Shown: positions 5,356 to 24,914, counted from the first letter of the stretch. The stretch: DNA of 64,000 bases from Candidatus Shapirobacteria bacterium (GCA_030698565.1 JAUYJS010000008.1:86513-150512); one strand, 5' to 3'. Numbers and translations are program-made. The notes: generated by a model not told the origin, from the letters alone.

Positions 5356-6600
5356 ATGGCCAACAATCAAATTAACTGTCCCAAATGTGGTGTTGAAATT
5401 TCCATTGACGATGTTTTGACCCATCAATTGGAAAAAAAAATTAAGCAGGCTTATGAAGCCAAACAAAAACAAAAAGATTTAGAAATAAATACCAAAGAGC
5501 AGGAACTTTTGGCCAAACAAAAACAGATTGATTCGGCCAAGGAAAATTTAGTCAATATTGTCAACAAAAAAGTTGCTGAAAATTTACAAATCGAAAAAGA
5601 TAAATTAAAACTTCAACTTAAAGAAGAAATTGAAAAAGAAAAAGCTGGAGAAGTCAAATTTCTTAGTGAGCAACTTTTGGAAAAAGATAAAAAATTGGAA
5701 GAGTCTCGTCAGGCCGAACTTGATTTGAGAAAGGAAAAAAACCAACTCGAAGAAGATAAAAAATCCTTTGAAGTTGAAAAACAACGACAATTGGATGAAG
5801 AAAGAAAAAATATTTATGAAGAGGCGTCCAAAAAGGCTTCCGCAGAAGAACAATTTAAATTATTAGAACTAAAAAAACAATTAAACGATGTTTCTAAAGT
5901 TAACGAAGAATTAAAACGAAAACTCCAACAAGGTTCCCAACAAACCCAAGGCGAAGTTTTGGAATTGGAACTCGAAGATTTGCTCAAAAAAGAATTTCCA
6001 CGAGATGAAATTCTACCAGTAGGCAAGGGTATTAATGGCGCTGATATCACCCAAAAAATAATAGACAATTATGGCCATGTTTGTGGCACTATTGTCTGGG
6101 AATCAAAACACACTAAAAACTGGACTGAAGGCTGGGTTCAAAAACTCAAAGACGATCAAAGGAATGAAAAAGCCGAAATTGCCGTCATTGTCACTACTGT
6201 TTTACCCAAAGAAATAAAAACCTTTGGTTTAAAAGACGGAGTCTGGGTTACTGATTTTGTTTCGGTTGTTGGTTTAGCCATAGTATTAAGGTCCAATATT
6301 ATTCAATTAAATTCTTTAAAACTAGCCTCTGTTGGTAAAAACGAAAAAATGGAAATGCTTTTTAATTATTTAAGCGGCACTGAATTTAAACAAAAAATAG
6401 AAACTATTGTCGAGGCTTTTGGCACTATGAAAGAGGATTTAGAAAAAGAGAAAAAAGTTTACACCAAAATGTGGGAATCACGGGATAAACAAATTAGTAG
6501 GGTAGTCGAAAGCACTATTGGAATGTACGGTAGTCTCGAAGGCCTCATGGGTAAATCCCTCCCTAAGATTGATGTATTAGAATTACCCGAAGAACTTTAA
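5356..6600 (+). CDS. Coiled-coil protein with an N-terminal zinc ribbon, DUF2130-like
   Basis: 'NCPKCGVEI' zinc ribbon, a long K/E-rich coiled coil, and a C-terminal globular domain. Confidence 0.55.
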   Translation: MANNQINCPKCGVEISIDDVLTHQLEKKIKQAYEAKQKQKDLEINTKEQELLAKQKQIDSAKENLVNIVNKKVAENLQIEKDKLKLQLKEEIEKEKAGEVKFLSEQLLEKDKKLEESRQAELDLRKEKNQLEEDKKSFEVEKQRQLDEERKNIYEEASKKASAEEQFKLLELKKQLNDVSKVNEELKRKLQQGSQQTQGEVLELELEDLLKKEFPRDEILPVGKGINGADITQKIIDNYGHVCGTIVWESKHTKNWTEGWVQKLKDDQRNEKAEIAVIVTTVLPKEIKTFGLKDGVWVTDFVSVVGLAIVLRSNIIQLNSLKLASVGKNEKMEMLFNYLSGTEFKQKIETIVEAFGTMKEDLEKEKKVYTKMWESRDKQISRVVESTIGMYGSLEGLMGKSLPKIDVLELPEEL

Positions 6601-7055: not shown

Positions 7056-7165
7056 GAAAAGATTTTAGCAAATTACTCAACAATCTGTTGTAAATTCACT
7101 TTACTATTTCCAAACATTTTTTTAACTTATGATTTGTTTTGACATAATCTCGTCACCTTAAGGGG

Positions 7166-7198
7166 GTGAGTCTGGAACCTTTCTGTCCTTATAATAAG
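7166..7198 (+). promoter_or_regulatory. Conserved intergenic motif, copy 1 of 5 (GTGAGTCTGGAACCTTTCTGTCCTTATAATAAG)
   Basis: Near-identical core recurs at 8953, 16147, 16962 and 17671. Ends in a TATAAT-like hexamer. Lies between divergent genes. Confidence 0.5.
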
Positions 7199-7486
7199 CT
7201 GAACTTTTAAAAACATTTTTATAAATGCTTTTCCGACATCCTTATTCCTGAGATCACTTGTTCCATAACCGAAATTAACGAAGGAGCTCACTAACCATTT
7301 TTTTTGCCAATATCCACCTGTTTTTAGGTAATTAATATAATATTAATTATTATGATAATAGTCTTTTTATCCTAATTCTTTTCTCTATATATTATGGTGG
7401 TTGCCATAATATTATTTCTATGGTAGAATGCGCCATATTAGTTTTTTTGCTTTATAAAAATTCTCACCAATATTCAGACTTCTCAA

Positions 7487-8599
7487 TTGGGCGGCATTGG
7501 CCAAACGTTCTATAATTTAGTAAATTTTTTAGAAAAAAATAATTTAGAAAAAGTCAAAATCGTCGGAGTTGATGTCACCTCAGAGCCAAATTCCAGTGAT
7601 AAAGGAATTTACTACAAATCAACACCTAGCTCAGTCTTAAAAGTTGTTTCAGTCAATTTGAAAACCCCTTATTTTGGAGATGTCATTCAAACGGTTAGTA
7701 ATATTGATGAAATTAAAGATACTTATTCCGAGTTAATCGATACCTATATTTCCATCATCAAAAAAGAAAAACCAAGTTTAATTCTAATCAATGGCACTTA
7801 CTTTGTTCCTTGGTGTTTATTCCAGGCCGGAAATCAACTAGGCATCCCTATGGTTCTTCATTATCACGGTATCCTCACCAAAGAAACGTCTCATTATGCT
7901 CCTGAGTTACATAAGTTAATCAAAGAGATGGAAACAACCTTTGATAACGACAAACTTCTATATATTTTCCCCTCAAAATTAGCCAAAACAGTGGTAGAAG
8001 AAGAAGTTTTTGGGCACAAAATTTCCAGAACCGCCATTATTCCCAATGCCATCCCAAATCACTTTTTTAAAATCAAAACTTCTGGAAACAAAAGAGACGT
8101 TGCCTTTGTCAGTCGTTGGTCGACAATTAAAAATCCTAATTTCATTAAAAAAATAACCAGATATGACCAAAAAAATAATCGGGACTATTGTTTTAATGTT
8201 GTCTCCGACAAAAAGGATGCTCAAAAAAGATATAAAAATATTTTAGAGAATATTAAGTTTTATGACCCGATGAATAGCTCCAAATTAGCCAGATTTTATG
8301 GAAAGATGGGGGTAGTCATAAGTCCATCGTTTTTTGAAACGTATGGTAATGTTGCCCAGGAAGCAATTGCCACCGGAACTCCGGCCTTAGTTGGTCCTAA
8401 TATGGGTGTAGCAGAACTTTTTAGAGAACTTGGTTTGTCTCAATACATCGTTGATTTTAAGTCAACAAAGAATGTATATGAAAAAATCAAAAATTTCAGT
8501 GGTCAAATGGTTAGTGACAAAATCAGAAAAATGATGAAGTACAACCTAACTCCACACGCCGTCAACAGTCGTTATATCAGCGCCCTAAAATCAGCTTAA
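7487..8599 (+). CDS. Glycosyltransferase, GT1/GT4 (group 1) family
   Basis: C-terminal 'ETYGNVAQEAIATGTPALVGPNMGVAELF' motif (E-x7-E type). The annotated start is a TTG and the true start is uncertain. Confidence 0.6.
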   Translation: MGGIGQTFYNLVNFLEKNNLEKVKIVGVDVTSEPNSSDKGIYYKSTPSSVLKVVSVNLKTPYFGDVIQTVSNIDEIKDTYSELIDTYISIIKKEKPSLILINGTYFVPWCLFQAGNQLGIPMVLHYHGILTKETSHYAPELHKLIKEMETTFDNDKLLYIFPSKLAKTVVEEEVFGHKISRTAIIPNAIPNHFFKIKTSGNKRDVAFVSRWSTIKNPNFIKKITRYDQKNNRDYCFNVVSDKKDAQKRYKNILENIKFYDPMNSSKLARFYGKMGVVISPSFFETYGNVAQEAIATGTPALVGPNMGVAELFRELGLSQYIVDFKSTKNVYEKIKNFSGQMVSDKIRKMMKYNLTPHAVNSRYISALKSA

Positions 8600-8952
8600 T
8601 TTAGTGGAAGGGATGGTCTACTTCGCTTTCAGCTTCGTAAGACCATGGGGAACCCAACCATTCTTAAAATCTTTTGTATGCAAACGCTTTTCCAGACCCA
8701 GTCTTAAGATATAATTCAAAATCTCTTGATTGTTTTTCTGTTTCGAATCCACCATATCAAACTAATTTCCATGGCAAATGCGGTTTAGTAGATTTTACTT
8801 GACCAGTATTATGGAGATTAAATCTAGTCTTTAAATCAATTGTGGATCCAAAATAGAAAATATGAGATTTTGAACTATGTAATATGTAAGCGTAATACAT
8901 ATTACAATATTATCAGATTAGGCATGCAATTCTGAAGCTATAGCGAAAGATT

Positions 8953-8993
8953 GCGGAGCAGTGGGGTCTGGAACCTTTCTATCTCTATAACTC
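8953..8993 (+). promoter_or_regulatory. Conserved intergenic motif, copy 2 of 5 (TGCGGAGCAGTGGGGTCTGGAACCTTTCTATCTCTATAACTC)
   Basis: Same core as 7166, with an upstream GCGGAG extension shared with copies 3-5. Confidence 0.5.
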
Positions 8994-9000
8994 TAATCTA

Positions 9001-9200
9001 AATAATCATGTACATTAAATTCCTCAACCGAAAAATCTTTCCCGTCAAAATTGAAAATAGTGTATCCACCTTCATGAATTTTAGAATCAATAATTATGTT
9101 ATTGTCCGGTCTAAATTTTGGTTCAAGAGCATAAACCGTATTTCTAATAATTCCTCCATGAGTTGAAATAAAAATTAAATTACTTGAATCTTTTTGTTAA
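9001..9200 (-). pseudogene. C-terminal fragment of a histidine-phosphatase (phosphoglycerate-mutase family) gene
   Basis: Reverse-strand frame reads '...ISTHGGIIRNTVYALEPKF...NVHDYLD*'. This matches the second catalytic His motif 'SAHGNSIRLF' of the intact paralog at 26272-26838. It has no start codon and sits in a 700-bp noncoding stretch. Confidence 0.4.
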
Positions 9201-9291
9201 ATTTATTTAAATCTAGGACTACTTCGGAGCAATTTGAAAGAATCAGAAATACTATAACTAATTATGGTATGAAATAGAAATACACTAAAAT

Positions 9292-10380
9292 TTAATTTCT
9301 AATTCTAAAATCCTGGGATTCTACTGGCACAATATTTCCATCTAGCCTTGCCATGTCGCTGAAGATTTGAATTAAAGCATTTCTTTCATTACCAGCTTTC
9401 ATAATTAAAGATAATTCTTTTAATCTCTTCCAAGAAGGATCGGTATAAACGATAGGATTAGCCATTGGTATTCTAAGTTGTTTAAATACATTAAAATTTC
9501 CTTTTTGCAGGTCTTTCTGAATAGCGCGAGCAAAAAATTCAATATCCTCCATACCCATAATACTAAATCTTGTACCATCAACAGTTTTTATTTCTTTACC
9601 ATTACATAAAGGATTATATCCACCTAATTCTATTAATTTTGAAAGCGGAATTAAATTTAAAGTATTTCTCATGGCATAGACAAGCTCAAGCAATTGGACT
9701 TGAGATTGTAATGGTTTTTTAATTAACCCTTTAAGTTTTTTTCTAGTTTCTATTAAATCAGTTTTAAAAGGTAGTTCTCCCTCACCAGTTTTTCTAACTG
9801 TGAATATATATCTTTGTTCACCAGCTAGCCTTGCCATCTTTTGAAGTTCGACATCTTCTATTTCTACATCAAACGACATATTGAGCATTCTTATATTTTC
9901 TCTATCTATTCCTTTTTCTATTGCAATTTCATTAACTAAAGCAATTCCAGAATTTAATCCCGAAGTCCAAGTATAACCCTTAATTTTGACCGGCAAAATT
10001 GGTACGGCAAATTCTCTTTGTTGAGACAATAATTCTAAATTTGCTTCTGTCATGTCGTTTTTATCCTGATCATGATTGATTGCTAGTACAACACCGACAA
10101 GCGCTGGAAAATTATTTTTAATTGTCTGGATACGATATGCAAGTTCACCAAGCAATTTTGTATCTTTACCCCAACATCTAATCACTGCGACAGCAGCCTG
10201 TCCACCATTTTCAGTACTTTTTTTGATGGCATCAATAAAACCAGGAAACACTTGCCGTCCCATTTCTGACACTTCAACACCTGCGCCATTCGGCAACAAA
10301 ATTTTTTTTATTGTTGTGTCAAAAGAGAATAGAGTTGTTTGTTCTAGGTCTACCGCGTGTAAATTTTCTGCTCTTGTCAT
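9292..10380 (-). CDS. Conserved hypothetical protein of 362 aa
   Basis: Long ORF with coding-like composition. No motif I can assign. Confidence 0.5.
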   Translation of the reverse strand: MTRAENLHAVDLEQTTLFSFDTTIKKILLPNGAGVEVSEMGRQVFPGFIDAIKKSTENGGQAAVAVIRCWGKDTKLLGELAYRIQTIKNNFPALVGVVLAINHDQDKNDMTEANLELLSQQREFAVPILPVKIKGYTWTSGLNSGIALVNEIAIEKGIDRENIRMLNMSFDVEIEDVELQKMARLAGEQRYIFTVRKTGEGELPFKTDLIETRKKLKGLIKKPLQSQVQLLELVYAMRNTLNLIPLSKLIELGGYNPLCNGKEIKTVDGTRFSIMGMEDIEFFARAIQKDLQKGNFNVFKQLRIPMANPIVYTDPSWKRLKELSLIMKAGNERNALIQIFSDMARLDGNIVPVESQDFRIRN

Positions 10381-10589
10381 ATGAAGCCAAATTATATCAT
10401 TATATTACAATAGTTCAATATCATAGGCAAAAGATGATAGTAAGCACTTACTCAGTTTATATAAAATTTTAGTAATTAGTTTTCAATAAAAGTTCCAACG
10501 CTCTCAGATCCCTCGGTTTCAAAATCCCAGTCGAAGCATAATTCAAACACCACCTCATTAAGAAACAAAAGGGAGATATACTTCAACTA

Positions 10590-11354
10590 ATGTTTTTTAA
10601 TAAAAAAAGTATTGGTTTAGTCCTCGGTGGCGGCGGAGCGAGAGGTTTTTTTCATATTGGTGTAATCAAGGCTATCCAAGAATTAAAAATAAAAATAGAT
10701 AAAATATCAGGAACCTCGATTGGAGCCGTAGTGGGAGCAATGTACGCCATTAATCCACAAATCGATTTGGAAAAAGTAATTGCAGAGCTTGATTATTTTG
10801 CAATAATTAAAACAATGGCTTTTGGGACCAAAGAAAGTTCAACTCATGGAGTTGAGTCACTTTTAAGAAAATATGTATCAGTGGAAAAGTTTTCTGACTT
10901 AAAAATCCCATTTTGTTTTAATGCCACTGATATTAATCAAAAAAAAGAAGTTATTTTTAGTCACGGCTCTCTATTTCCTGGTTTATTAGCAGCCATTTCA
11001 ATTCCAGGAGCTTTTTCTCCTGTAAAAATAGGCGAAAGATTTTTGGTTGACGGGGGAGTAACTAACAATATCCCTATTTCTTTAATCAAAGACACAACGG
11101 ACTTAATAGTTTCCGATATTACTGGACCAATTAAAAAAGTAGACGATAAAATTTCAGCTCTTGATGTACTTTATAGTTCAGTGGCTTTAATGCAATTTAA
11201 TAAAGGTCAAGAAGAAATTAAAAAAGCCAAAAAACAAAAAATAACTTATTTAAACTTGGACGATGATCAAGTATTTATTTTTGATTTTAGAAAAAGTAAT
11301 TATCAAAAGTTGATTGAATTAGGCTACCAAGCAATGATGAAAAAAAATATTTAA
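10590..11354 (+). CDS. Patatin-like phospholipase
   Basis: '[17 protein letters not shown]' oxyanion motif and 'GTSIGA' lipase GxSxG. Confidence 0.85.
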
Positions 11355-12745
11355 TACCGATAGTTTTCCGATTTAAACGGACCTTTTATAGATATTCCCA
11401 AATAGTCAGCTTGGTTTTGAGTTAATTCGTCCATATCCACACCTACTTTTGCCAAGTGTAATCTGGCCACTTCTTCATCTAATAATTTTGGTAAAGTGTA
11501 AACTCCAACTGGGTAATTTTTAGTTTTAGTAAATAATTCAATTTGAGCCAATACTTGATTAGTAAAACTAGTTGACATAACAAAACTAGGATGACCAGTT
11601 GCGTTTCCCAAATTCAACAATCTACCTTCCGACAATAAAATTATTTCCCTCTTATTAGATAAATGAATTATATCCACCTGTGGTTTTACATTTTCCCATT
11701 TATATTTTTTTAATTTTTCGACTTGAATTTCAGCATCAAAATGACCTATGTTACCCACAATTGCCCGATCTTTCATTTGCAATACATGTCGTTCTAAAAT
11801 TACATCTTTACATCCTGTCGCAGTAATAAAAATATCTCCAATTTTACAAGCATCATCCATTTTCATCACCTGATATCCTTCCATAGCTGCTTGCAGGGCA
11901 CAAATCGGATCGACCTCTGTCACTACAATTCTTGCACCTTGTCCTTTGAATGCCTGTGTTGTTCCCTTACCCACATCTCCAAAACCAGCCACCACCACTA
12001 CTTTTCCAGAGATCATTACGTCGGTCGCTCGCATCACTCCGTCCACAGCAGAATGCCGGCAACCATAAAGATTATCAAACTTTGACTTAGTCACTGAATC
12101 ATTCACATTAATAGCTGGGATTTTTAATTCTCCTTTCTGATGCATTTGATATAAACGGTGTACTCCAGTAGTCGTTTCTTCACTTACTCCTTTAATTTCC
12201 GCCATCATTTTATGAAATCTTTTAGGATTTTTCTTAATTGATTTTTTAAGTTGATTCAAAATTATTGCTTCTTCATTATTACTAGCTTTTCTATCTAAAA
12301 ATTTTGGATCTTCCTCAGCTATATAACCCCAATGTAAAAATAGGGTAGCATCCCCACCGTCATCTAAAATCATATTTGCTTGGGTTTTTTTTCCCCAATC
12401 AAAAATATAATCAACATATTGCCAATATTCCTCTAAGGATTCACCTTTAACTGCAAACACCGGCACACCGGCTTTAGCAATTGCCGCTGCCGCATGGTCT
12501 TGAGTTGAATAAATATTGCAACTTGCCCATCTTACTTTGGCTCCGAGCTCGATTAAAGTTTCAATCAATACTGCTGTCTGAATCGTCATATGAAGCGACC
12601 CAATAATCCTCGCTCCCTTAAGTGGTTTTTTTGTACCAAATTTTTTTCTCAAAGCCATCAAACCCGGCATCTCCTGTTCTGCTAATGTAATTTCCTTTCG
12701 GCCCCAGTCGGCCAACTTAATATCTTTGATTTGATAGTTTTTCAT
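11351..12745 (-). CDS. ahcY: Adenosylhomocysteinase (S-adenosyl-L-homocysteine hydrolase)
   Basis: 464 aa. NAD-binding '[12 protein letters not shown]'. Overall SAHH-like sequence, e.g. '[34 protein letters not shown]'. Confidence 0.95.
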
Positions 12746-12748
12746 TTA

Positions 12749-13717
12749 TTATTTTAAATTTTTAATTTTATTTATTAATTCTTTTTTAGTAGTTGTATAC
12801 AGCTGCCCGCCTTTTTCTTCCACACTTTTTGCTCCCATAAAAGCCCCGAACCTACAAGATTCTTCTAAACTTTTATTTTTCAATAATCCATGGATTAATC
12901 CAGCCCTAAAAGCATCTCCTGCACCAGTTGTCTCGGTTACTTTTTTGGGTTTTATTGCCTCAATTTTTATAGGTGACAAATCTTTTTGATGAATAAGACA
13001 ACCATCTTCACCTCTAGTTTCAATTATAGCTTTTAATCCCAAATTAAGGACATCCTTAGTGCCTAAACCAAAAATGTTTTTTAATTGAGCTATTTCAGTT
13101 TCATTGCCTATGAAAATATCAGCCAGACTTAAACATTCTAATAATAATTTTTTATCATAAAAAATTGACAATACTTGGCTTGGATCAAAAATTATAGTTA
13201 CCTTATTCTTTAATTTTTTTCTCAATTCTTTCATATGGTTTCTAGTACTTATTCCTGTTCCAGGTGAAAAAATAGATACTTTAATTAGGGAATAATCACT
13301 CTTTTTTAAACCTTCTTTTAATTTGGTCTTGTCGGAGAAGTCAGCATACACATTTGGCTGCCAGATTCCAATTTGTTGCAACACTTCATCTGAAATTCCA
13401 TAAAAAGTCGGAGTAAAACCCTCTTTTTTAATAACCCTTAATTTTATCTTCAGCTTTTTTAAATAAGGTTCGTAGTCCGTGCTAAAATCTTTTCCTGCCA
13501 CTGAGAACAATATTGGTCTATCTCTTAAAAGAGCCAATCCATAGGCAATATTACCCGCTGTCCCTCCATAGTATTTTTGTTTTCCCTTAGCAGTAAACAT
13601 TAAGTTTACCCGACCAACTTTACCATTCTTAACAATAATTTCTTTACGTATATCTCCGTGTATTCCAAAAATTAAATCATAGGCTACTGTTCCTACGACT
13701 AAAGCTCGATTATTCAT
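12749..13717 (-). CDS. PfkB-family carbohydrate/nucleoside kinase, probably adenosine kinase
   Basis: 'TTGAGDAFRAGLI' PfkB signature. Lies between metK and ahcY. Confidence 0.75.
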   Translation of the reverse strand: MNNRALVVGTVAYDLIFGIHGDIRKEIIVKNGKVGRVNLMFTAKGKQKYYGGTAGNIAYGLALLRDRPILFSVAGKDFSTDYEPYLKKLKIKLRVIKKEGFTPTFYGISDEVLQQIGIWQPNVYADFSDKTKLKEGLKKSDYSLIKVSIFSPGTGISTRNHMKELRKKLKNKVTIIFDPSQVLSIFYDKKLLLECLSLADIFIGNETEIAQLKNIFGLGTKDVLNLGLKAIIETRGEDGCLIHQKDLSPIKIEAIKPKKVTETTGAGDAFRAGLIHGLLKNKSLEESCRFGAFMGAKSVEEKGGQLYTTTKKELINKIKNLK

Positions 13718-13747
13718 GCTGAAGTATTTTTATCATTTTTATTCTTT

Positions 13748-14854
13748 TCAGCCTTTTATCTTTTCCCAAGGATAACTTTCATTACCAAAATGACCATATC
13801 TGGCAGTTTTTTGGTAAATTGCTTGTCTTAGATCTAACCCTTGGTTAATACCGTCAACCGACAAGTCTAATAAATTCCAAGCAAAGTCTTCTATTACCGA
13901 CAATGCTTTATTGGCGGTATCAAAAGTTTCTATTGCTCTAACAATCGGCTCAACACAACCAATTACATAAGCCAATTGGACTTCGCATCTATCAGCCAAT
14001 CCGGCAGCAACAATATTTTTAGCAATGTATCTAGCGGCATAAGCCGCACTTCTATCCACTTTTGTTGTGTCTTTACCAGAGAAACATCCACCACCAATTC
14101 TAGCCATTCCTCCATAAGTATCAACCACAATTTTTCGTCCAGTGACTCCAGTATCACTTGCCGGTCCGCCAATTTCCCATTTGCCGGTACCATTAAAAAC
14201 AAATTCATCTATTGGGATCAGATTCATTTTGTACTTTTCTAAAACCGGACTTATTACCTCATCAAACAGAACTTTTTTAACTTCAGTGTTGTCAATTTTT
14301 GAATAGTCAAATGGCTTGGCTAAAACAATATTTTTAATTGACTTTACTTTCCCATTTTCGTAATTTACAGCCACTTCAGATTTTCCATCCGGCCGTAACC
14401 AGACATATTTAGAATGCAAAGTGTCCATCTTTTGGCAAAGTTCATGAGCTATAGTAATTGGTAGGGGCATAAATTGTTTGGTTTCGTTACAGGCATAGCC
14501 AAACATCATTCCCTGATCACCCGCTCCACCATCATCAACTCCTAGTGCGATATCGGGAGACTGTTGGTGAATATATACTTCGATACTGGCTTTATTATTA
14601 AATTCAAATTTATCTTCCAAATACCCCAATTCCTCAACCTTATTTCGAGCCAACTTTTCAAAATCAATTGATTTTGGACAAGTTACTTCACCTGCCAAAA
14701 CTATTTTATTGGTGGTAACCAATGTTTCACAGGCGACTCGTGATTTGGGATAAATACTAATGGCGGCATCAACAACAGAGTCGGAAATCTGGTCACAAAT
14801 TTTATCGGGATGACCGGCACATACTGATTCTGACGTAAAAACGGAATATTTCAT
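13748..14854 (-). CDS. metK: S-adenosylmethionine synthetase
   Basis: Canonical N-terminus 'MKYSVFTSESVCAGHPDKICDQISD', preceded by a strong SD (AAAGGAGGAAAA). The tracked ORF extends to 14917 from a GTG, and I judge that extension spurious. Confidence 0.95.
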   Translation of the reverse strand: MKYSVFTSESVCAGHPDKICDQISDSVVDAAISIYPKSRVACETLVTTNKIVLAGEVTCPKSIDFEKLARNKVEELGYLEDKFEFNNKASIEVYIHQQSPDIALGVDDGGAGDQGMMFGYACNETKQFMPLPITIAHELCQKMDTLHSKYVWLRPDGKSEVAVNYENGKVKSIKNIVLAKPFDYSKIDNTEVKKVLFDEVISPVLEKYKMNLIPIDEFVFNGTGKWEIGGPASDTGVTGRKIVVDTYGGMARIGGGCFSGKDTTKVDRSAAYAARYIAKNIVAAGLADRCEVQLAYVIGCVEPIVRAIETFDTANKALSVIEDFAWNLLDLSVDGINQGLDLRQAIYQKTARYGHFGNESYPWEKIKG

Positions 14855-15073
14855 TTTTCCTCCTTTAATTAATAAGAGGCATGTCTGAGTCCTGACTTGG
14901 TCAGGGTTCTTTGGCACCGTGGATTTTTATCTCGGTTGTCGACCCCTACAGCATTTGCTAAGGAGATACTCTGGACATTGCTATTTGAATACTAACCAAC
15001 TACTTCTTACTTGTCAATTAATTAGTTTTAAATTATTCCATCACCACGATTTAATTAAATTTTTGCAAAACCA

Positions 15074-15415
15074 TCAAACCAAAGCGGTCTCATCATTTTC
15101 ATATATCTCAATAACTTTATATCTTCCTTTTGTATAAATTTCTCCATTTTTTAAAAAATGTACCGCTTCTAAAATTACGATACTTGCCTTAGGTTTTGAT
15201 AAATTACCATTCCCTTTAGTTTCTAATAGAGGAATTTCACCCATCAGCCAATAAATCCGCTGACCCTTTTTTAAAAAATTATATTCCTTATTTATTTCTA
15301 TATTTTCTGGAATACATTCTTCAACATCACGATTACCATTATTGTATTCACTAATATTTCTTAATGCTAAATCGGGATTAAATTCTACTTGTATTCCCAT
15401 TATGTATTTTATCAT
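15074..15415 (-). CDS. Hypothetical protein
   Basis: 113-aa ORF with no motif. Confidence 0.35.
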   Translation of the reverse strand: MIKYIMGIQVEFNPDLALRNISEYNNGNRDVEECIPENIEINKEYNFLKKGQRIYWLMGEIPLLETKGNGNLSKPKASIVILEAVHFLKNGEIYTKGRYKVIEIYENDETALV

Positions 15416-15459
15416 TTAATCCAAAAATCTATACAAAATGCGGCGAACCATTGATGCAG

Positions 15460-16116
15460 TTAGAATCTACTATCTTGAGCAATCTTTATTAGAAAATCTT
15501 CAAAACTAAGTCTCTTTTGCCAATAATCTAAAAGTATCGGCCATTTTGCTCGTACTTCCGGGTACGAATTTACACTGCTTTCTGTGTCAGTACCTGGAAA
15601 CAAACTCTTTGCTTTCGTCTTAAATAATGCTAATGCGGCTACTCCTTCGGTAAAAATAGTTTTGTTTAGTCTCGCTGTCATCTTCATTTTGTCGACCACA
15701 TAGTAATAGTGGCTGTGAAACAACTCATGTCCTACTAAAAACTTAGGGTTAATAATTGCCCCTGTGGTTAATGCAATTTCTTGACTCCTTAAATTAAATG
15801 GATTACTAAAACCAATCATTGAGCTGAAAGCCAAAAAATAGGCATGGTATGTTTTGTATAGCCATGGAGTTCCGGTAATTTTTTCAAACAGCTTAAAATA
15901 ATCTTTCTCTATTAATTTCCATTCGCTTTCAATTTTCTTGATTAGTTCTTTGTCGTCATCATCCCAGAAACCGGCAATCTTCTTTGTGATTCTAGATTTA
16001 TTTTTGATTGGAGTAAAAGAAAAAATAGACATACCTTCAAATCCTAGAGTATTACAAAAAAGCTGATGATATTCATATTCTTTTTCTGAATTAATCTCAA
16101 ACTTAACCATTGGCAT
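15460..16116 (-). CDS. Hypothetical protein with an HExxH motif, putative zinc metallopeptidase
   Basis: 'VGHELFHSHYYY' contains HELFH. Confidence 0.4.
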   Translation of the reverse strand: MPMVKFEINSEKEYEYHQLFCNTLGFEGMSIFSFTPIKNKSRITKKIAGFWDDDDKELIKKIESEWKLIEKDYFKLFEKITGTPWLYKTYHAYFLAFSSMIGFSNPFNLRSQEIALTTGAIINPKFLVGHELFHSHYYYVVDKMKMTARLNKTIFTEGVAALALFKTKAKSLFPGTDTESSVNSYPEVRAKWPILLDYWQKRLSFEDFLIKIAQDSRF

Positions 16117-16146
16117 TTGGGCTAATTATACCTTGTCAACATACGA

Positions 16147-16187
16147 GCGGAGAGGATTAGTCTGGAACCTTTCTGTCTCTATAACTC
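16147..16187 (+). promoter_or_regulatory. Conserved intergenic motif, copy 3 of 5 (GCGGAGAGGATTAGTCTGGAACCTTTCTGTCTCTATAACTC)
   Basis: Lies 31 nt upstream of the start of the minus-strand gene at 16116, when read on the minus strand. Confidence 0.5.
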
Positions 16188-16204
16188 GAGAGGGTTCAAT
16201 AAGA

Positions 16205-16939
16205 TTACTCAATCGGGAAATTTTGTCCATTAATACCTCGTGCTTCATCAGAGCAAAGAAAAACTATTTTTTTTACAACATCCTCCGTTTCCAAAAGTTT
16301 ATGGTTTGGATTTCTTGCCAATCTTGCCTCTAGTTCTTCTCTTGGTGCAGTTAACCAATAACCAGTATTAACCGCCCCTGGTGAAACAGAGTTAGCTCTG
16401 CCTCCAAAAGATGATAATAATTTTGAATATGATTGGTGGGTCACATTTATTACTCCAGCTTTAGCAGCTCCATAGGATATAGAATCTGTATGACCAGAAA
16501 TGCCATGTTTTGAAGCTACGTTTACGATAATACCGCTACCTTGCTTCTCAAAAAACTCTGTAGCATATTTTGAAACACTTATAACCGAAATAAGATTTTG
16601 CTTTATGGATTTTATCCAAGTTTCAGATTTTAGATTCCATTCATCACCATCAATATAACGACCAGCATTGTTTATAACTATATCTAATTTTTTAAACTCT
16701 TTGATTACACTCTTTACTGCTTTTTTAGCATCTTCGTCTTTAGACAGATCAGCCTTTATTTTTATAGATTTTCTACCCATACTTTTTATTTGATCTACAA
16801 CATTCTCGGCACCTTTTTTGTTACTTTTATAAGTAATAGCGACATCAGCACCCTTTTCGGCAAATAAAATAGCCGTGGCCATACCTATACCGCTTGAGCC
16901 TCCAGTTACTAATACAACTTTATCTTTAAACATTATCAA
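16205..16939 (-). CDS. Short-chain dehydrogenase/reductase (FabG-like)
   Basis: 'VVLVTGGSSGIGMATA' Rossmann motif and 'YGAAKAG' catalytic YxxxK. Confidence 0.9.
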   Translation of the reverse strand: MIMFKDKVVLVTGGSSGIGMATAILFAEKGADVAITYKSNKKGAENVVDQIKSMGRKSIKIKADLSKDEDAKKAVKSVIKEFKKLDIVINNAGRYIDGDEWNLKSETWIKSIKQNLISVISVSKYATEFFEKQGSGIIVNVASKHGISGHTDSISYGAAKAGVINVTHQSYSKLLSSFGGRANSVSPGAVNTGYWLTAPREELEARLARNPNHKLLETEDVVKKIVFLCSDEARGINGQNFPIE

Positions 16940-16961
16940 TATTTAACCATAAAAAAACTTT

Positions 16962-17010
16962 GGCGGAGAATGTGAGTTTGGAATCTTTCTATCCTTATAA
17001 TTAAACCTGA
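16962..17010 (+). promoter_or_regulatory. Conserved intergenic motif, copy 4 of 5 (GGCGGAGAATGTGAGTTTGGAATCTTTCTATCCTTATAATTAAA)
   Basis: Lies 23 nt from the start of the SDR gene on the minus strand. Slightly diverged (TTTGGAATC). Confidence 0.5.
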
Positions 17011-17621
17011 ATTATTTGAATTGAATCGTTAATAATCCAAATATATTGTTGATTAGTTATCGGAGTTATTTTTACGCCTTCTGTATACATCAATTCAAAG
17101 CCCTTAAGATATTCATCACGAAAAATATCACTTCCCCAATGAGGCAAAATAGCTAAATCTATTATTTCTAACCCAGTCAATTTTAAATCAGGAGCTTTTG
17201 ATTGATCGTCGATTGTTGAGACTAAATCAATTCTCTTTCCAATAATCATTGATCCTGCACTCGATCCAATATAAATAACCCCTTTTTCAATCTTATTTTT
17301 AATTATTTCATCACAACCAGTTTTAATTACCTGATCTAATAAATAAAAAGTATTTCCACCACAAAAATAAATTATTTGTTTGTTTTCTAATCTCTTCTCG
17401 ATTTCTTCTTTAGACATTCCTTTAATTGAAAATTCATCAACCTTAAAACCAACTTCAATTAATTTATCCTTTTCAGCCTTAACCCACCAATGATCCCCAT
17501 CTTCAACTTCAGCAGCCGTATTAATAAAAGCCAAGTTTAATTCTTTAGGAGATTTTGGTAATTTATCAACAATGTCGTCCATAACATCTTCACTACTTGA
17601 TGTTAAAAATAATTGTTTCAT
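17001..17621 (-). CDS. Peptidase S51 family (dipeptidase E / cyanophycinase-like)
   Basis: 'IYFCGGNTFYLLD' and 'GVIYIGSSAGSMI', typical of S51. Confidence 0.65.
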   Translation of the reverse strand: MKQLFLTSSSEDVMDDIVDKLPKSPKELNLAFINTAAEVEDGDHWWVKAEKDKLIEVGFKVDEFSIKGMSKEEIEKRLENKQIIYFCGGNTFYLLDQVIKTGCDEIIKNKIEKGVIYIGSSAGSMIIGKRIDLVSTIDDQSKAPDLKLTGLEIIDLAILPHWGSDIFRDEYLKGFELMYTEGVKITPITNQQYIWIINDSIQIIQV

Positions 17622-17670
17622 AAGTTATTTTATCAGTCTAATTTCAAAATTACTCAAACAATACCCGAAA

Positions 17671-17713
17671 TGCGGAGCATGTGAGTCTGGAACCTTTCTA
17701 TCCCTATAATTCC
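17671..17713 (+). promoter_or_regulatory. Conserved intergenic motif, copy 5 of 5 (TGCGGAGCATGTGAGTCTGGAACCTTTCTATCCCTATAATTCC)
   Basis: Lies 50 nt from the start of the S51 peptidase gene on the minus strand. Confidence 0.5.
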
Positions 17714-17727
17714 TTGTTTTTTGCGTA

Positions 17728-18246
17728 TTAAACCAGTATTTTTTTATAAATATCAAAACTACCAAGTGAATGTTTACTCAAACCACTCCTTTCTCTTTTT
17801 TCTTTCATTTTTAATATTTTAAGTTTATTTTTTTCATTTAATTTAGCTTTCATCAAATTATCTACTTCTTTCTGATCATTAGATTCTTTATTAAAAAACC
17901 AAATTTCTATTTCCCATTTTCTATCATTAAAAGGCAAAATCAAATTTAAAATATAAGATTCAGGTCTTTTCTCTCTTTTAAAAGTTACAAAATCACCATA
18001 TTCATATTTTTGAGCCAATTTAGCTTCAATAACTTTATTTAATGCCTCTAATGAAGATTTTCTTGTATTTTGACAAACCACCGTAATATCAATATCGGCT
18101 CCCCACATAATGTCATATTTAAAACTTCCACCAACAATTACTTCACCATATTTTTTTAAAATACTTATTAAATCAGTATTTTTTAACAAAAAAGTCGCGT
18201 CATCTTTAGTTTTTTTAGAAAATTCCAAAATATCTCTATCTTTCAT
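17728..18246 (-). CDS. Minimal nucleotidyltransferase-fold protein
   Basis: 'VGGSFKYDIMWGADIDITVV' fits the GS-x(9-13)-DhD Pol-beta-like NTase motif. Confidence 0.5.
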   Translation of the reverse strand: MKDRDILEFSKKTKDDATFLLKNTDLISILKKYGEVIVGGSFKYDIMWGADIDITVVCQNTRKSSLEALNKVIEAKLAQKYEYGDFVTFKREKRPESYILNLILPFNDRKWEIEIWFFNKESNDQKEVDNLMKAKLNEKNKLKILKMKEKRERSGLSKHSLGSFDIYKKILV

Positions 18247-18272
18247 ATCAAATTATACAATGTCATAATAAG

Positions 18273-18359
18273 TGCGGAGGAGGCGAGATTCGAACTCGCG
18301 AGTCCTTGTGAGACGCAGACTTTCCAGGTCTGTGCAATGAACCACTATGCGACTCCTCC
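18273..18359 (-). tRNA. tRNA-Ser(GGA)
   Basis: Cloverleaf with acceptor GGAGGAG/CUCCUCC, anticodon loop CUGGAAA, a long variable arm, and T-loop GUUCGAAUC. CCA is not encoded. Confidence 0.8.
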
Positions 18360-18360
18360 A

Positions 18361-18490
18361 ATTTGTTAATGTATAGAACCACGATGTTGAGCGAAGCGAA
18401 ATCCCCGTAGGGACGACTCCTCCAGTTTGTTAATGAACCACGATGTTGAGCGAAGCGAAATCCCCGTAGGGACGACTCCTCCAGTAGGGT
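18361..18490. repeat. Tandem direct repeat, two ~58-bp copies, each ending in a copy of the tRNA-Ser 5' acceptor sequence
   Basis: 'AACCACGATGTTGAGCGAAGCGAAATCCCCGTAGGGACGACTCCTCCAG' occurs twice (about 18377-18426 and 18435-18484), immediately 5' of the tRNA. Confidence 0.7.
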
Positions 18491-24239: not shown

Positions 24240-24640
24240 TATACTTGAACGGAGTTCAAAGGGGACGTTTAAATTTGAGAAACAAATTTATTACGTTCCT
24301 TGATTTTCCTGAGACGTAAGAACATTTAATTGCTACGCAATTTTTACGTTCAACGTTTCTGTCGAGAAAATAAATTTCTCTCAGGAAGGGTGCGCCGAAT
24401 GGTAAGGCACAGGTTTGCTAAACCTGCGTCCCGCAAGGGGCATGGGGGTTCGACTCCCCCCTCTTCCGCCACGTAAATTTGCTACGCAAATTAACGTGGC
24501 TGGAACGTTAATTTTACGAAGTAAAATTTTACGTTCCGCTTTATTCACAAACTTACGTCTTGCCCTTTTTATTCAAACGCTGCTAGGAACGTAAGTTTTC
24601 TGAAAGAAAACTGTACGTTCCGCCTTCACTTCCTCCCAGT
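24240..24640. repeat. Cluster of ACGT-centred imperfect palindromes (TTACGTTCC / GGAACGTAA modules) on both sides of tRNA-Ser(GCU)
   Basis: Left of the tRNA: TTGAACGGAGTTCAA and ACGTTTAAATTTG-agaaa-CAAATTTATTACGT. Right of the tRNA: CGTAAATTTGCTACGCAAATTAACG, GGAACGTTAATTTTAC-gaag-GTAAAATTTTACGTTCC, and GGAACGTAAGTTTTCTGAAAGAAAACTGTACGTTCC. Confidence 0.6.
24384..24471 (+). tRNA. tRNA-Ser(GCU), with CCA encoded
   Basis: Acceptor GGAAGGG/CUCUUCC, anticodon loop UUGCUAA, long variable arm, T-loop GUUCGACUC, 3' GCCA. Confidence 0.85.
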
Positions 24641-24659
24641 TTCCTCTTATACTAATTGT

Positions 24660-24914
24660 ATGTTTTATTACATCTACATTTTACGGAGTCTAAAAAATAA
24701 CAGTTTATATATTGGCTACACGGCTGATTTAAAAAAAAGATTTTACCGACATAATGCCGGTTTAAACAAAGCCACTAAACCATTTATTCCTTATCAATTA
24801 ATCCATTACGAAGCCTTTTTAAATCGAGTTGATGCCAAAAGGCGAGAAGTTTATTTAAAGTCTGGCTGGGGAATAAAAAGCATTCACAAAATGCTTGAAA
24901 GATATTTTATATAA
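24660..24914 (+). CDS. GIY-YIG nuclease superfamily protein (COG2827-like)
   Basis: 'YIYILRSLKNNSLYIGYTADLKKRFYRHN' GIY-YIG motif. Confidence 0.75.
   Translation: MFYYIYILRSLKNNSLYIGYTADLKKRFYRHNAGLNKATKPFIPYQLIHYEAFLNRVDAKRREVYLKSGWGIKSIHKMLERYFI

Follow-up and report, generated by a model that had tools for sequence, protein, structure and literature searches.

A motif resembling the 3' end of tRNA-Ser borders variable gene units in Candidatus Shapirobacteria and its relatives, and may be an integration junction

Bacteria of the Candidate Phyla Radiation (CPR) have tiny genomes with few recognisable mobile elements, and the way they gain and swap accessory genes is poorly understood. We analysed a stretch of 64,000 nucleotides (nt), here called the window, from Candidatus Shapirobacteria bacterium (GCA_030698565.1, JAUYJS010000008.1:86513-150512). 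Its G+C content is 34.6%. The window holds five copies of a motif of 40 nt, which follow one another behind a tRNA-Ser(GGA) gene. A preliminary description, made from the sequence alone, had reported these copies. It proposed either a -10 hexamer with an operator for a dedicated regulator, or a small repeat element. Throughout the text a copy is read on the minus strand, which is the tRNA-like strand. Loci in related genomes are labelled with L-numbers (L004, L012, L166, etc.) and are oriented so that this strand reads forward.

Starting from the tRNA-Ser(GGA) gene, the order is DUF4269, copy 5, S51 peptidase, copy 4, short-chain dehydrogenase (SDR) and copy 3. The array continues with an HExxH protein, metK, pfkB, AdoHcyase, patatin, an unknown gene, a histidine-phosphatase remnant and copy 2. 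It ends with a GIY-YIG pseudogene, a GT4 glycosyltransferase gene, copy 1 and a NUDIX gene. The features are the following.

18274..18359, minus strand: intact tRNA-Ser(GGA) gene that heads the array and points the same way as the tRNA-like strand of each of the five copies
17728..18246, minus strand: unit 1, a DUF4269-like gene between the tRNA and copy 5
17672..17709, minus strand: copy 5, beginning 18 nt past the DUF4269 stop codon and ending ...ATGCTCCGCA
17622..17671, minus strand: sequence past the end of copy 5 (TTTCGGGTATTGTTTGAGTAATTT...TGATAAAAT), carrying the -10 box of the S51 gene
17001..17621, minus strand: unit 2, the S51 peptidase gene between copies 5 and 4
16961..17000, minus strand: copy 4, beginning 0 nt past the TAA stop of the S51 peptidase gene and ending ...ATTCTCCGCCA
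16205..16939, minus strand: unit 3, the SDR gene between copies 4 and 3
16147..16185, minus strand: copy 3, beginning 19-21 nt past the SDR stop codon
9292..16116, no strand assigned: long interval from copy 3 to copy 2 with the HExxH protein, metK, pfkB kinase, AdoHcyase, patatin and unknown genes, not obviously mobile
8953..8991, minus strand: copy 2, after the 3' remnant of the histidine-phosphatase gene (8991-9208)
7153..7194, minus strand: copy 1, a variant with a profile match at 7166-7194, which keeps TTATAAGGACAGAAAGG-TTCCAGA-CTCAC
24384..24471, plus strand: tRNA-Ser(GCT) gene and native 3' flank; a GIY-YIG gene comes next, at 24660-24914

We searched the window for the 25-nt core GTCTGGAACCTTTCTRTCYYTATAA, allowing up to 3 mismatches, and took the chance level from 100 shuffles. 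The core occurs at five sites of the plus strand: 7170, 8966, 16160, 16976 (2 mismatches) and 17685. No copy is expected by chance. A profile of the 40-nt motif with its GCGGAG extension spans 7166-7194, 8953-8991, 16147-16185, 16963-17000 and 17672-17709. The positions given earlier (7166, 8953, 16147, 16962 and 17671) are the starts of the 40-nt motif and agree with these matches. Likewise, the preliminary description was right in placing all five copies on the plus strand and between genes, with GCGGAG in copies 2-5 and a gap of about 23-111 nt to the next minus-strand start codon. Copy 1 carries CACCTTAAGGGGGTGAG in place of the extension. The sequence GAAccTTTC, described as an nGAAnnTTCn-like inverted repeat, is not a true one because it has one T too many. 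The profile built from the five copies finds no sixth copy anywhere in the 64-kb window. Its best weak extra match (E=6) is the 3' end of the tRNA-Ser(GGA) gene, at 18268-18295.

The copies differ in their surroundings. Copy 1 presents a 5-7-5 hairpin (TCACC CCCTTAA GGTGA) in place of the acceptor-like CTCCGCCA end, and the NUDIX gene starts about 100 nt past it on the minus strand. Variants of this type are also present in L005, L012, L014 and L024. Past copy 2 on the minus strand there is a hairpin flank, common to L017, L021 and L037, and then the GIY-YIG pseudogene (about 8600-8912), which has an in-frame stop codon. To the right of copy 2, the DNA at 8991-9290 is non-coding, and its histidine-phosphatase 3' remnant is homologous to an open reading frame (ORF) of 205 amino acids (aa) in L012. 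The block of HExxH-protein, metK, pfkB and AdoHcyase genes begins 30 nt past the CCGC end of copy 3. The SDR start lies 21-23 nt past copy 4. Near-identical versions of copy 5 occur in L013 and L020.

The common part of the copies, here module A, shows the following order on the minus strand: TTATAGGGAYAGAAAGG, TTCCAGA, 5 nt, a 7-nt NNNCTCC, G73 and CC(A). The TTCCAGA part is T-loop-like and retains the tRNA positions G53, T54, T55, C56, A58 and C61. The next five nucleotides (CTCAC, CCCAC or CCCTA) resemble the 3' strand of the T-stem, which is CTCGC or CCCAC in the resident tRNA-Ser genes. The NNNCTCC 7-mer corresponds to an acceptor-like strand. Each copy consists, then, of an invariant arm of about 24 nt (TTATAGGGAYAGAAAGG-TTCCAGA) and a 16-17-nt imitation of tRNA-Ser positions 61-76. 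Given this tRNA-like layout, the left half of the motif as first described mimics the 3' end of tRNA-Ser. The 3' end of the window tRNA-Ser(GGA), CTCGC-CTCCTCC-G-CA, appears to be the template that the motif imitates.

The copies share no more than about 15-17 of 25-27 nt with the resident tRNA; what fits is the orientation and the layout of T-loop, T-stem, acceptor and CCA. The only sequence kept exactly between tRNA ends and copy ends is (C)TCCGCC(A), and this makes it the likely core of an exchange. Some copies come closer to a real tRNA. In one L166 copy the acceptor-like 7-mer, CCCCTCC, is that of the tRNA-Ser(GGA) of the same genome. The L016 copy carries CTCACCTCCTCCGC, with 13 of 14 nt identical to the 3' end of the window tRNA, and its 7-mer, CTCCTCC, is the acceptor 7-mer of that tRNA. 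No tRNA was found in the 8-kb L016 locus. A crossover in the middle of the motif, as L016 might suggest, was rejected, as the match is limited to the first 13 nt and the alignment is not significant. The copies are not real or split tRNAs or a transfer-messenger RNA: ARAGORN and Rfam found none, and the 5' acceptor strand is absent.

We scanned one genome per species with a degenerate 25-mer, and found it in 41 loci of related metagenome-assembled genomes (MAGs). The record titles name Shapirobacteria, Woesebacteria or Microgenomates MAGs for 18 of them, 'uncultured Gammaproteobacteria' for another 18, and something else for a few. The titles outside Microgenomates are probably those of mislabelled bins. 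This comparison of sister genomes, which the preliminary description had called for, shows a motif conserved at 25 of 25 nt, against 66-75% DNA identity for orthologous genes in the same loci. Literature searches found no description of the element.

In about 30 loci, a longer element of about 150 nt begins sharply, at its left end, with module A. It is followed by a variable linker of 8-19 nt and by module B, with four TGTCTYATT repeats (one forward, two direct reverse and one forward) around TATAAA. Often module C comes next, an outward predicted promoter of the TGnTATAAT type. Module B was never found without module A. The Y of each TGTCTYATT repeat varies independently, which fits protein-binding DNA repeats better than an RNA stem. 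The short form is module A alone, with a break exactly after TATAA(Y). It comprises about a dozen copies elsewhere and all five in the window. In varied contexts, the boundaries of the element are discrete and sharp.

The arrays follow an orientation rule. In every locus with at least two copies, all of them lie on one strand. There are five co-oriented copies in the window, three in each of L005, L012 and L016, six of a variant in L172, and two in each of L011, L020, L025, L026, L030, L039, L166 and L167. An intact tRNA-Ser(GGA) gene in the same orientation heads the arrays in the window, L012, L017, L024, L026 and L166/L167. The NUDIX gene upstream of this tRNA is conserved, and the genes downstream are different in every genome.

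We tabulated the next gene for 27 copies elsewhere and the preceding stop codon for 18 short copies. About 15 of the 18 short copies start at -7 to +19 nt relative to the stop codon of an ORF that reads in the same direction. Sometimes the copy itself furnishes the stop codon with its own TTATAG or TTATAA. The next ORF mostly begins 23-150 nt past the short copy, and the next gene is convergent in about 8 of the 27. The tight positional rule is that of the preceding gene's stop codon and not of the next gene's start.

The sequence outside the copies is also related to tRNA-Ser. For 59 copies, the 70 nt past the CCA end were compared with the DNA 3' of 28 tRNA genes in the same set of loci. In 12 of the 59, the flank is homologous, across genomes, to a tRNA 3' flank, with alignments that start 1-12 nt past the end. 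All 12 matches are to tRNA-Ser(GCT) or tRNA-Ser(GGA), and none of the 59 copies matches any of 16 non-Ser tRNA flanks. For example, the L009 and L027 flanks are 94% identical over 68 nt to the L024 tRNA-Ser(GCT) flank. In the window, the stretch at 17622..17671 is homologous to the L026 tRNA-Ser(GGA) 3' flank and to the flank of an L012 copy. The flank of an L004 copy matches that of the window tRNA-Ser(GCT). The site at 24384..24471 is the unoccupied version of the one that holds a full element in L004 and related loci. Past the full element of L012, homology to the L024 tRNA-Ser(GGA) flank extends over more than 100 nt. Relative to L024, L012 has about 1 kb extra between the real tRNA-Ser(GGA) and that flank, with a NUDIX gene, one short copy, a 73-aa ORF and the full element.

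Small GIY-YIG (UPF0213-like) genes directly follow tRNA-Ser(GCT) or lie 3' of motif copies; in L012 such a gene stands just before tRNA-Ser(GGA). We located them in the window (8600-8912 and 24660-24914) and in L005, L008, L012, L016, L021 and L034. They are enriched beside the copies (7 loci) because a GIY-YIG gene natively follows tRNA-Ser(GCT), as at 24384-24914 of the window. Likewise, the copy flanks often have hairpins with covarying stems and a conserved GAAGTTCTACG loop, since these flanks are homologous to tRNA-Ser 3' flanks.

The genes that end at the motif behave as separate units. The DNA of unit 1 is 88% identical in L016, in different surroundings. The window segment 8953-9208, which joins the end of the histidine-phosphatase gene to copy 2, is 82% identical to L012 7677-7932. 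S51 peptidase homologues have a different downstream neighbour in every genome examined. A copy follows their stop codon in the window, in L166 (decayed) and in L172, and none does so in L170, L171 and L173. The decayed L166 copy is above chance, with 0 of 1000 shuffles scoring as high. So, two gene-and-motif pairs recur: S51 (window, L166 and L172) and histidine phosphatase (window and L012). Weak profile matches in L004, L010 and L015 correspond to further decayed copies. In L172, the six copies of a lineage-specific variant (..TCCAGAC-N4-ATGTCCCGCCA-TTTTCAACATGTTCC..) lie on one strand and bracket four single genes: S51, NUDIX, SDR and DUF5680. Co-oriented, compact and mostly single-ORF units that end in a site, as in integrons, are DUF4269, S51 and SDR in the window and the arrays of L005, L016, L020 and L172. 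Two intervals of the window, from copy 3 to copy 2 and from copy 2 to copy 1, are multi-gene exceptions.

The units next to the copies include NUDIX, HD, histidine-phosphatase, CYTH, S51 and SDR genes; Shedu and restriction-modification are examples of the defence genes among them. In L007 (4564-6698), L027 (3598-5966) and L040, full elements are followed by a ribbon-helix-helix protein and a Shedu (SduA) defence gene. The L007 locus adds a ParB-like N6/N4 DNA methylase and a second N6/N4 methylase. The variable regions therefore carry defence systems as well.

Elements that target tRNA genes leave partial tRNAs and stack up beside the tRNA (PMC4383910; doi 10.1101/2020.12.28.424599). They also leave a regenerated tRNA, a native flank past the distal direct repeat and older elements displaced outward. 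The loci described here match this pattern, and their compact single-gene units recall integron arrays. For these reasons we read the motif as an att-type junction, where DNA units were joined at tRNA-Ser 3' ends as cassette-like insertions. We hold this reading with moderate confidence. The invariant arm of about 24 nt (TTATAGGGAYAGAAAGG-TTCCAGA) would belong to the inserted unit. The tRNA-Ser-like half would end in the shared core (C)TCCGCC(A), and beyond it would come the sequence that lies directly 3' of a real tRNA-Ser in other genomes. Older units could have been pushed outward as new ones were joined, time after time, to tRNA-Ser(GGA) or to an earlier copy, which would have produced the co-oriented array of the window. 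We infer that the exchange is site-specific, made by a recombinase encoded elsewhere in the genome, with crossing over at or near CTCCGCCA. The 24-nt arm and the TGTCTYATT repeats of the long form are candidate protein-binding parts, and the repeats might be accessory (arm-type) sites.

Several known systems share features with the array. The tRNA islands of the Islander model (PMC4383910) and the Prochlorococcus tycheposons (doi 10.1101/2020.12.28.424599) likewise have an intact tRNA at one end and direct repeats resembling a tRNA 3' end further in, in the orientation of the tRNA. In the window, the gap from tRNA-Ser(GGA) to the first unit is 28 nt. In those systems, too, newer units lie by the tRNA and older ones are pushed outward, hypervariable genes follow a conserved tRNA, and the outside of the repeat is the native tRNA flank, as the 12 flank matches show for the motif. 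However, neither an integrase nor a replication module turned up inside the motif units or close to them, and most of these units consist of one gene (0.6-1.2 kb). The repeat is composite, with its invariant 24-nt non-tRNA arm and an acceptor 7-mer (ATGCTCC) that mostly does not match. Finally, the host is a CPR bacterium.

Integron arrays, and the attC clusters without integrase (CALINs), are also co-oriented, with mostly single unrelated ORFs and a conserved site a few nucleotides past each stop. As in chromosomal attC families, the L172 sites resemble each other more than those of other genomes. Like CALINs, the motif arrays adjoin no integrase. On the other hand, the sites lack the R''/L''-L'/R' symmetry and the single-strand hairpin of attC. 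We rejected an attC-like hairpin, since DNA and RNA folds were no better than shuffles (z-scores about 0) and no R''/R' consensus appeared. Neither IntI nor attI was found, each unit has its own -10 promoter, and the array is anchored at a tRNA gene. An IntI integrase, attI and Pc would stand at the head of an integron array; here that place belongs to a tRNA-Ser with a NUDIX gene before it.

The long form recalls attP or attR of the lambda type in having a short core shared with the target (CTCCGCCA). At a distance of 60-120 nt on one side lie four TGTCTYATT repeats of 9-10 nt, two of them direct and two inverted, placed like P-arm sites; these are putative sites, judged from sequence. It differs in having no integrase or excisionase gene adjoining, and its repeats overlap a promoter-like TATAAA, so they could instead be operators. 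The motif resembles REP/BIME repeats (repetitive extragenic palindromes and the mosaic elements built of them), miniature inverted-repeat transposable elements (MITEs) and 'mobile promoters' in that all are short conserved intergenic repeats past stop codons, several per genome. Unlike REP/BIME and MITEs, it is not palindromic, has neither terminal inverted repeats nor target-site duplications, keeps a single orientation and is linked to tRNA-Ser ends and flanks.

A broader proposal is tentative, and we regard it as possible more than probable. The motif could mark a gene-capture platform of Microgenomates (CPR), like an integron in function and different in build. Single-gene cassettes would end in 40-170-nt sites that mimic the end of tRNA-Ser. 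They would be inserted, stacked and exchanged at tRNA-Ser 3' ends by a recombinase encoded elsewhere, possibly of the host Xer type, without attC hairpins or IntI. Active sites would make this a second cassette system beside integrons, evolved independently of them.

Other results weigh against an att-type junction. Neither the 64-kb window nor about 4-10 kb around some 60 copies yielded a recombinase of the tyrosine or serine type, an HUH enzyme or a related transposase. This was a crude screen by six-frame regular expressions (tyrosine-recombinase box II, serine-recombinase motif and HUH motifs) without a positive control, with a partial Pfam annotation of the loci. It covered the window, the 41 loci and eight loci of 16-20 kb, and distant recombinases could have been missed. 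The integrase that the Islander model places inside an island was likewise not found by this screen, in the window or near the same copies. The only transposase seen near any copy is of the IS3 family (rve domain), at 400-1257 of L011, about 1.1 kb from a full element; it is probably unrelated to the motif. Searches for a circular, viral, plasmid or phage form of the motif were all empty. Moreover, the commonest acceptor-like 7-mer, ATGCTCC, matches no tRNA-Ser seen in these genomes, so the copies are not simply displaced authentic tRNA ends. In a metagenome scan, tRNAs ending ATGCTCCGCCA exist elsewhere (Ser-GCT, Asp-GTC and others). The motif was present in 0 of 120 metagenome loci with such tRNAs, and no link to Microgenomates appeared.

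The gene content raises further objections to the same reading. The metK, AdoHcyase and other genes between copies 2 and 3 look unlike cargo. In L170, a distant relative, the S51 and SDR genes are 4 nt apart with no motif. This adjacency means that the insertion of a lone small element fits at least as well as independent cassettes. Finally, a gene replacement distinguishes L166 from L167, and no copy lies at its borders. There, L166 6069-7662 has a 362-aa ORF where L167 2814-4407 has a 453-aa ORF and a CsoR-like repressor, and the S51 protein is identical in both.

The motif could instead act at the RNA level, as punctuation between transcription units. Read on the minus strand, it would lie in the 3' untranslated region of the preceding gene and serve in termination, in 3'-end processing or in stabilisation through its tRNA-like end. 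The flank would give the next promoter, and the whole would be kept as an insulator between neighbouring genes. We consider this unlikely. It agrees with the motif lying tight against the preceding stop codon, with a -10 box always between motif and next ATG, and with copy 4 and a promoter standing in the window between the S51 and SDR genes that L170 has 4 nt apart. The covarying hairpins with the GAAGTTCTACG loop, inherited from tRNA-Ser 3' flanks, are in its favour too, and the strong sequence conservation implies a present function. Nevertheless, the folding energies of the five copies equal those of shuffled controls on both strands, and no U-tract terminator is present. RNAalifold on 29-32 long forms finds little. 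Rfam recovers true tRNAs only, at gathering score; it gives no match to the motif even at E<=1, and there is no consistent covariation. As folds of all copies were also without result, we rejected a structured RNA. A pairing of the variable 5-mer with the linker or the arm was dropped because its register shifts between sequences. An RNA function also leaves unexplained the orientation rule relative to the tRNA, the homology to tRNA flanks and the variable gene content.

We give somewhat less credit to the view that the copies are inert scars of old islands at tRNA-Ser, whose integrases have since been lost and which have no present activity. The setting is that of a classic tRNA-linked island, no integrase lies nearby, and decayed copies do exist (L166 after S51, and the weak matches in L004, L010 and L015). 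But inert DNA would hardly fit a non-tRNA arm that is invariant at 25 of 25 nt in 41 loci of different genera, where coding DNA has diverged to about 70%. The copies within the L172 genome form their own variant family. In addition, the units are single genes ending exactly at the motif and not island-sized blocks.

A MITE-like, non-autonomous element of about 46-170 nt appears improbable. It would insert itself just past stop codons or tRNA-Ser-like ends, and the genes between copies would be ordinary residents. The S51-SDR pair suggests such an insertion, with copy 4 between the two genes in the window, copies and the NUDIX gene between them in L172, and no copy in L170. The metK block between copies 2 and 3 and the sharp boundaries in varied contexts are also in line with it. 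However, neither terminal inverted repeats nor target-site duplications are present at the five window copies, and there is no associated transposase. The outside flank is specifically that of tRNA-Ser, and one strict orientation per locus is unusual for MITEs. Transposon ends of the Tn7, IS605 or IS91 type were rejected for the same lack of transposase, inverted repeats and duplications.

The small repeat element of the preliminary description stands in a broad sense. Its other proposal, a promoter whose extended operator would bind a dedicated regulator, is very improbable, also with an alternative sigma factor in the regulator's place. Such a promoter would drive the minus-strand genes, or plus-strand transcripts from the TATAAY end. 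In its favour, about 19 of 27 copies have a co-directional gene start 15-150 nt further on, TATAAT/TATAAC at the motif's end is similar to a -10 box, and the long form has repeats of a protein-binding type with an outward TGnTATAAT promoter at its far end. Against this, a sigma-70 scan found no site, and no pair of -35 and -10 hexamers coincides with any copy on either strand. A sigma-54 promoter was rejected as well, because TGGAAC-N5-TGTC has TC where the -12 element needs GC. A separate -10 box belongs to the next minus-strand gene; it precedes the ATG by 5-8 nt and lies a variable 16-90 nt from the motif, and the spacing from motif to gene varies. The TATAAY end on the plus strand faces the 3' ends of convergent genes, and the next gene is itself convergent in the 8 copies or so mentioned above. 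Contiguous conservation over 40 nt, 'spacer' included, is not promoter-like.

The motif family marks the exact borders of variable gene units by tRNA-Ser genes in many Shapirobacteria and Woesebacteria genomes. It offers a sequence handle for mapping gene flux and for seeking the acting enzyme. It is also a practical marker, as assemblies break at the motif repeats.

Other observations concern the surroundings of the array. Positions 18350-18485, between a TATAAT promoter and the real tRNA-Ser(GGA), hold 2.2 tandem copies of a 59-nt unit. In this unit, a 31-nt insert (TCCCTACGGGGATTTCGCTTCGCTCAACATC) joins the initial 10 nt of the tRNA to the D-loop GTGGTTCA. In the same strain, contigs assembled from short reads end at this tandem repeat. 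In L029, a similar GGGGATTTCCG..CGCTTCGCTC stretch adjoins GGCGGAGGAGG, which is like a tRNA-Ser end. L021 has four tandem 27-nt units (GCATGCAATTCTAAACTTGGGAATGTG) at about 1100-1210, right outside the CCA-side end of a motif copy. In L013, 47 nt upstream of a copy, there is a class-II-like tRNA of 84 nt (1756-1839), which ARAGORN calls Ile(GAT) and the Rfam tRNA model scores at only 36.6 bits. By the distal end of the window array, positions 5356-6600 encode a DUF2130 protein that combines a long coiled coil with a nuclease-like E-x-K motif at the C-terminus. Exact-protein look-ups of the window genes returned only identical fragments from the same strain.

The window tRNA genes have TATAAT boxes 7 nt upstream. 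At 17622-17640, 16117-16146, 7056-7090 and 18247-18273 there are -10 boxes, often TGnTAnAAT, only 5-8 nt before the ATG. Boxes close to the ATG are also present in the related loci L026, L166 and L168. This short distance suggests leaderless mRNAs.

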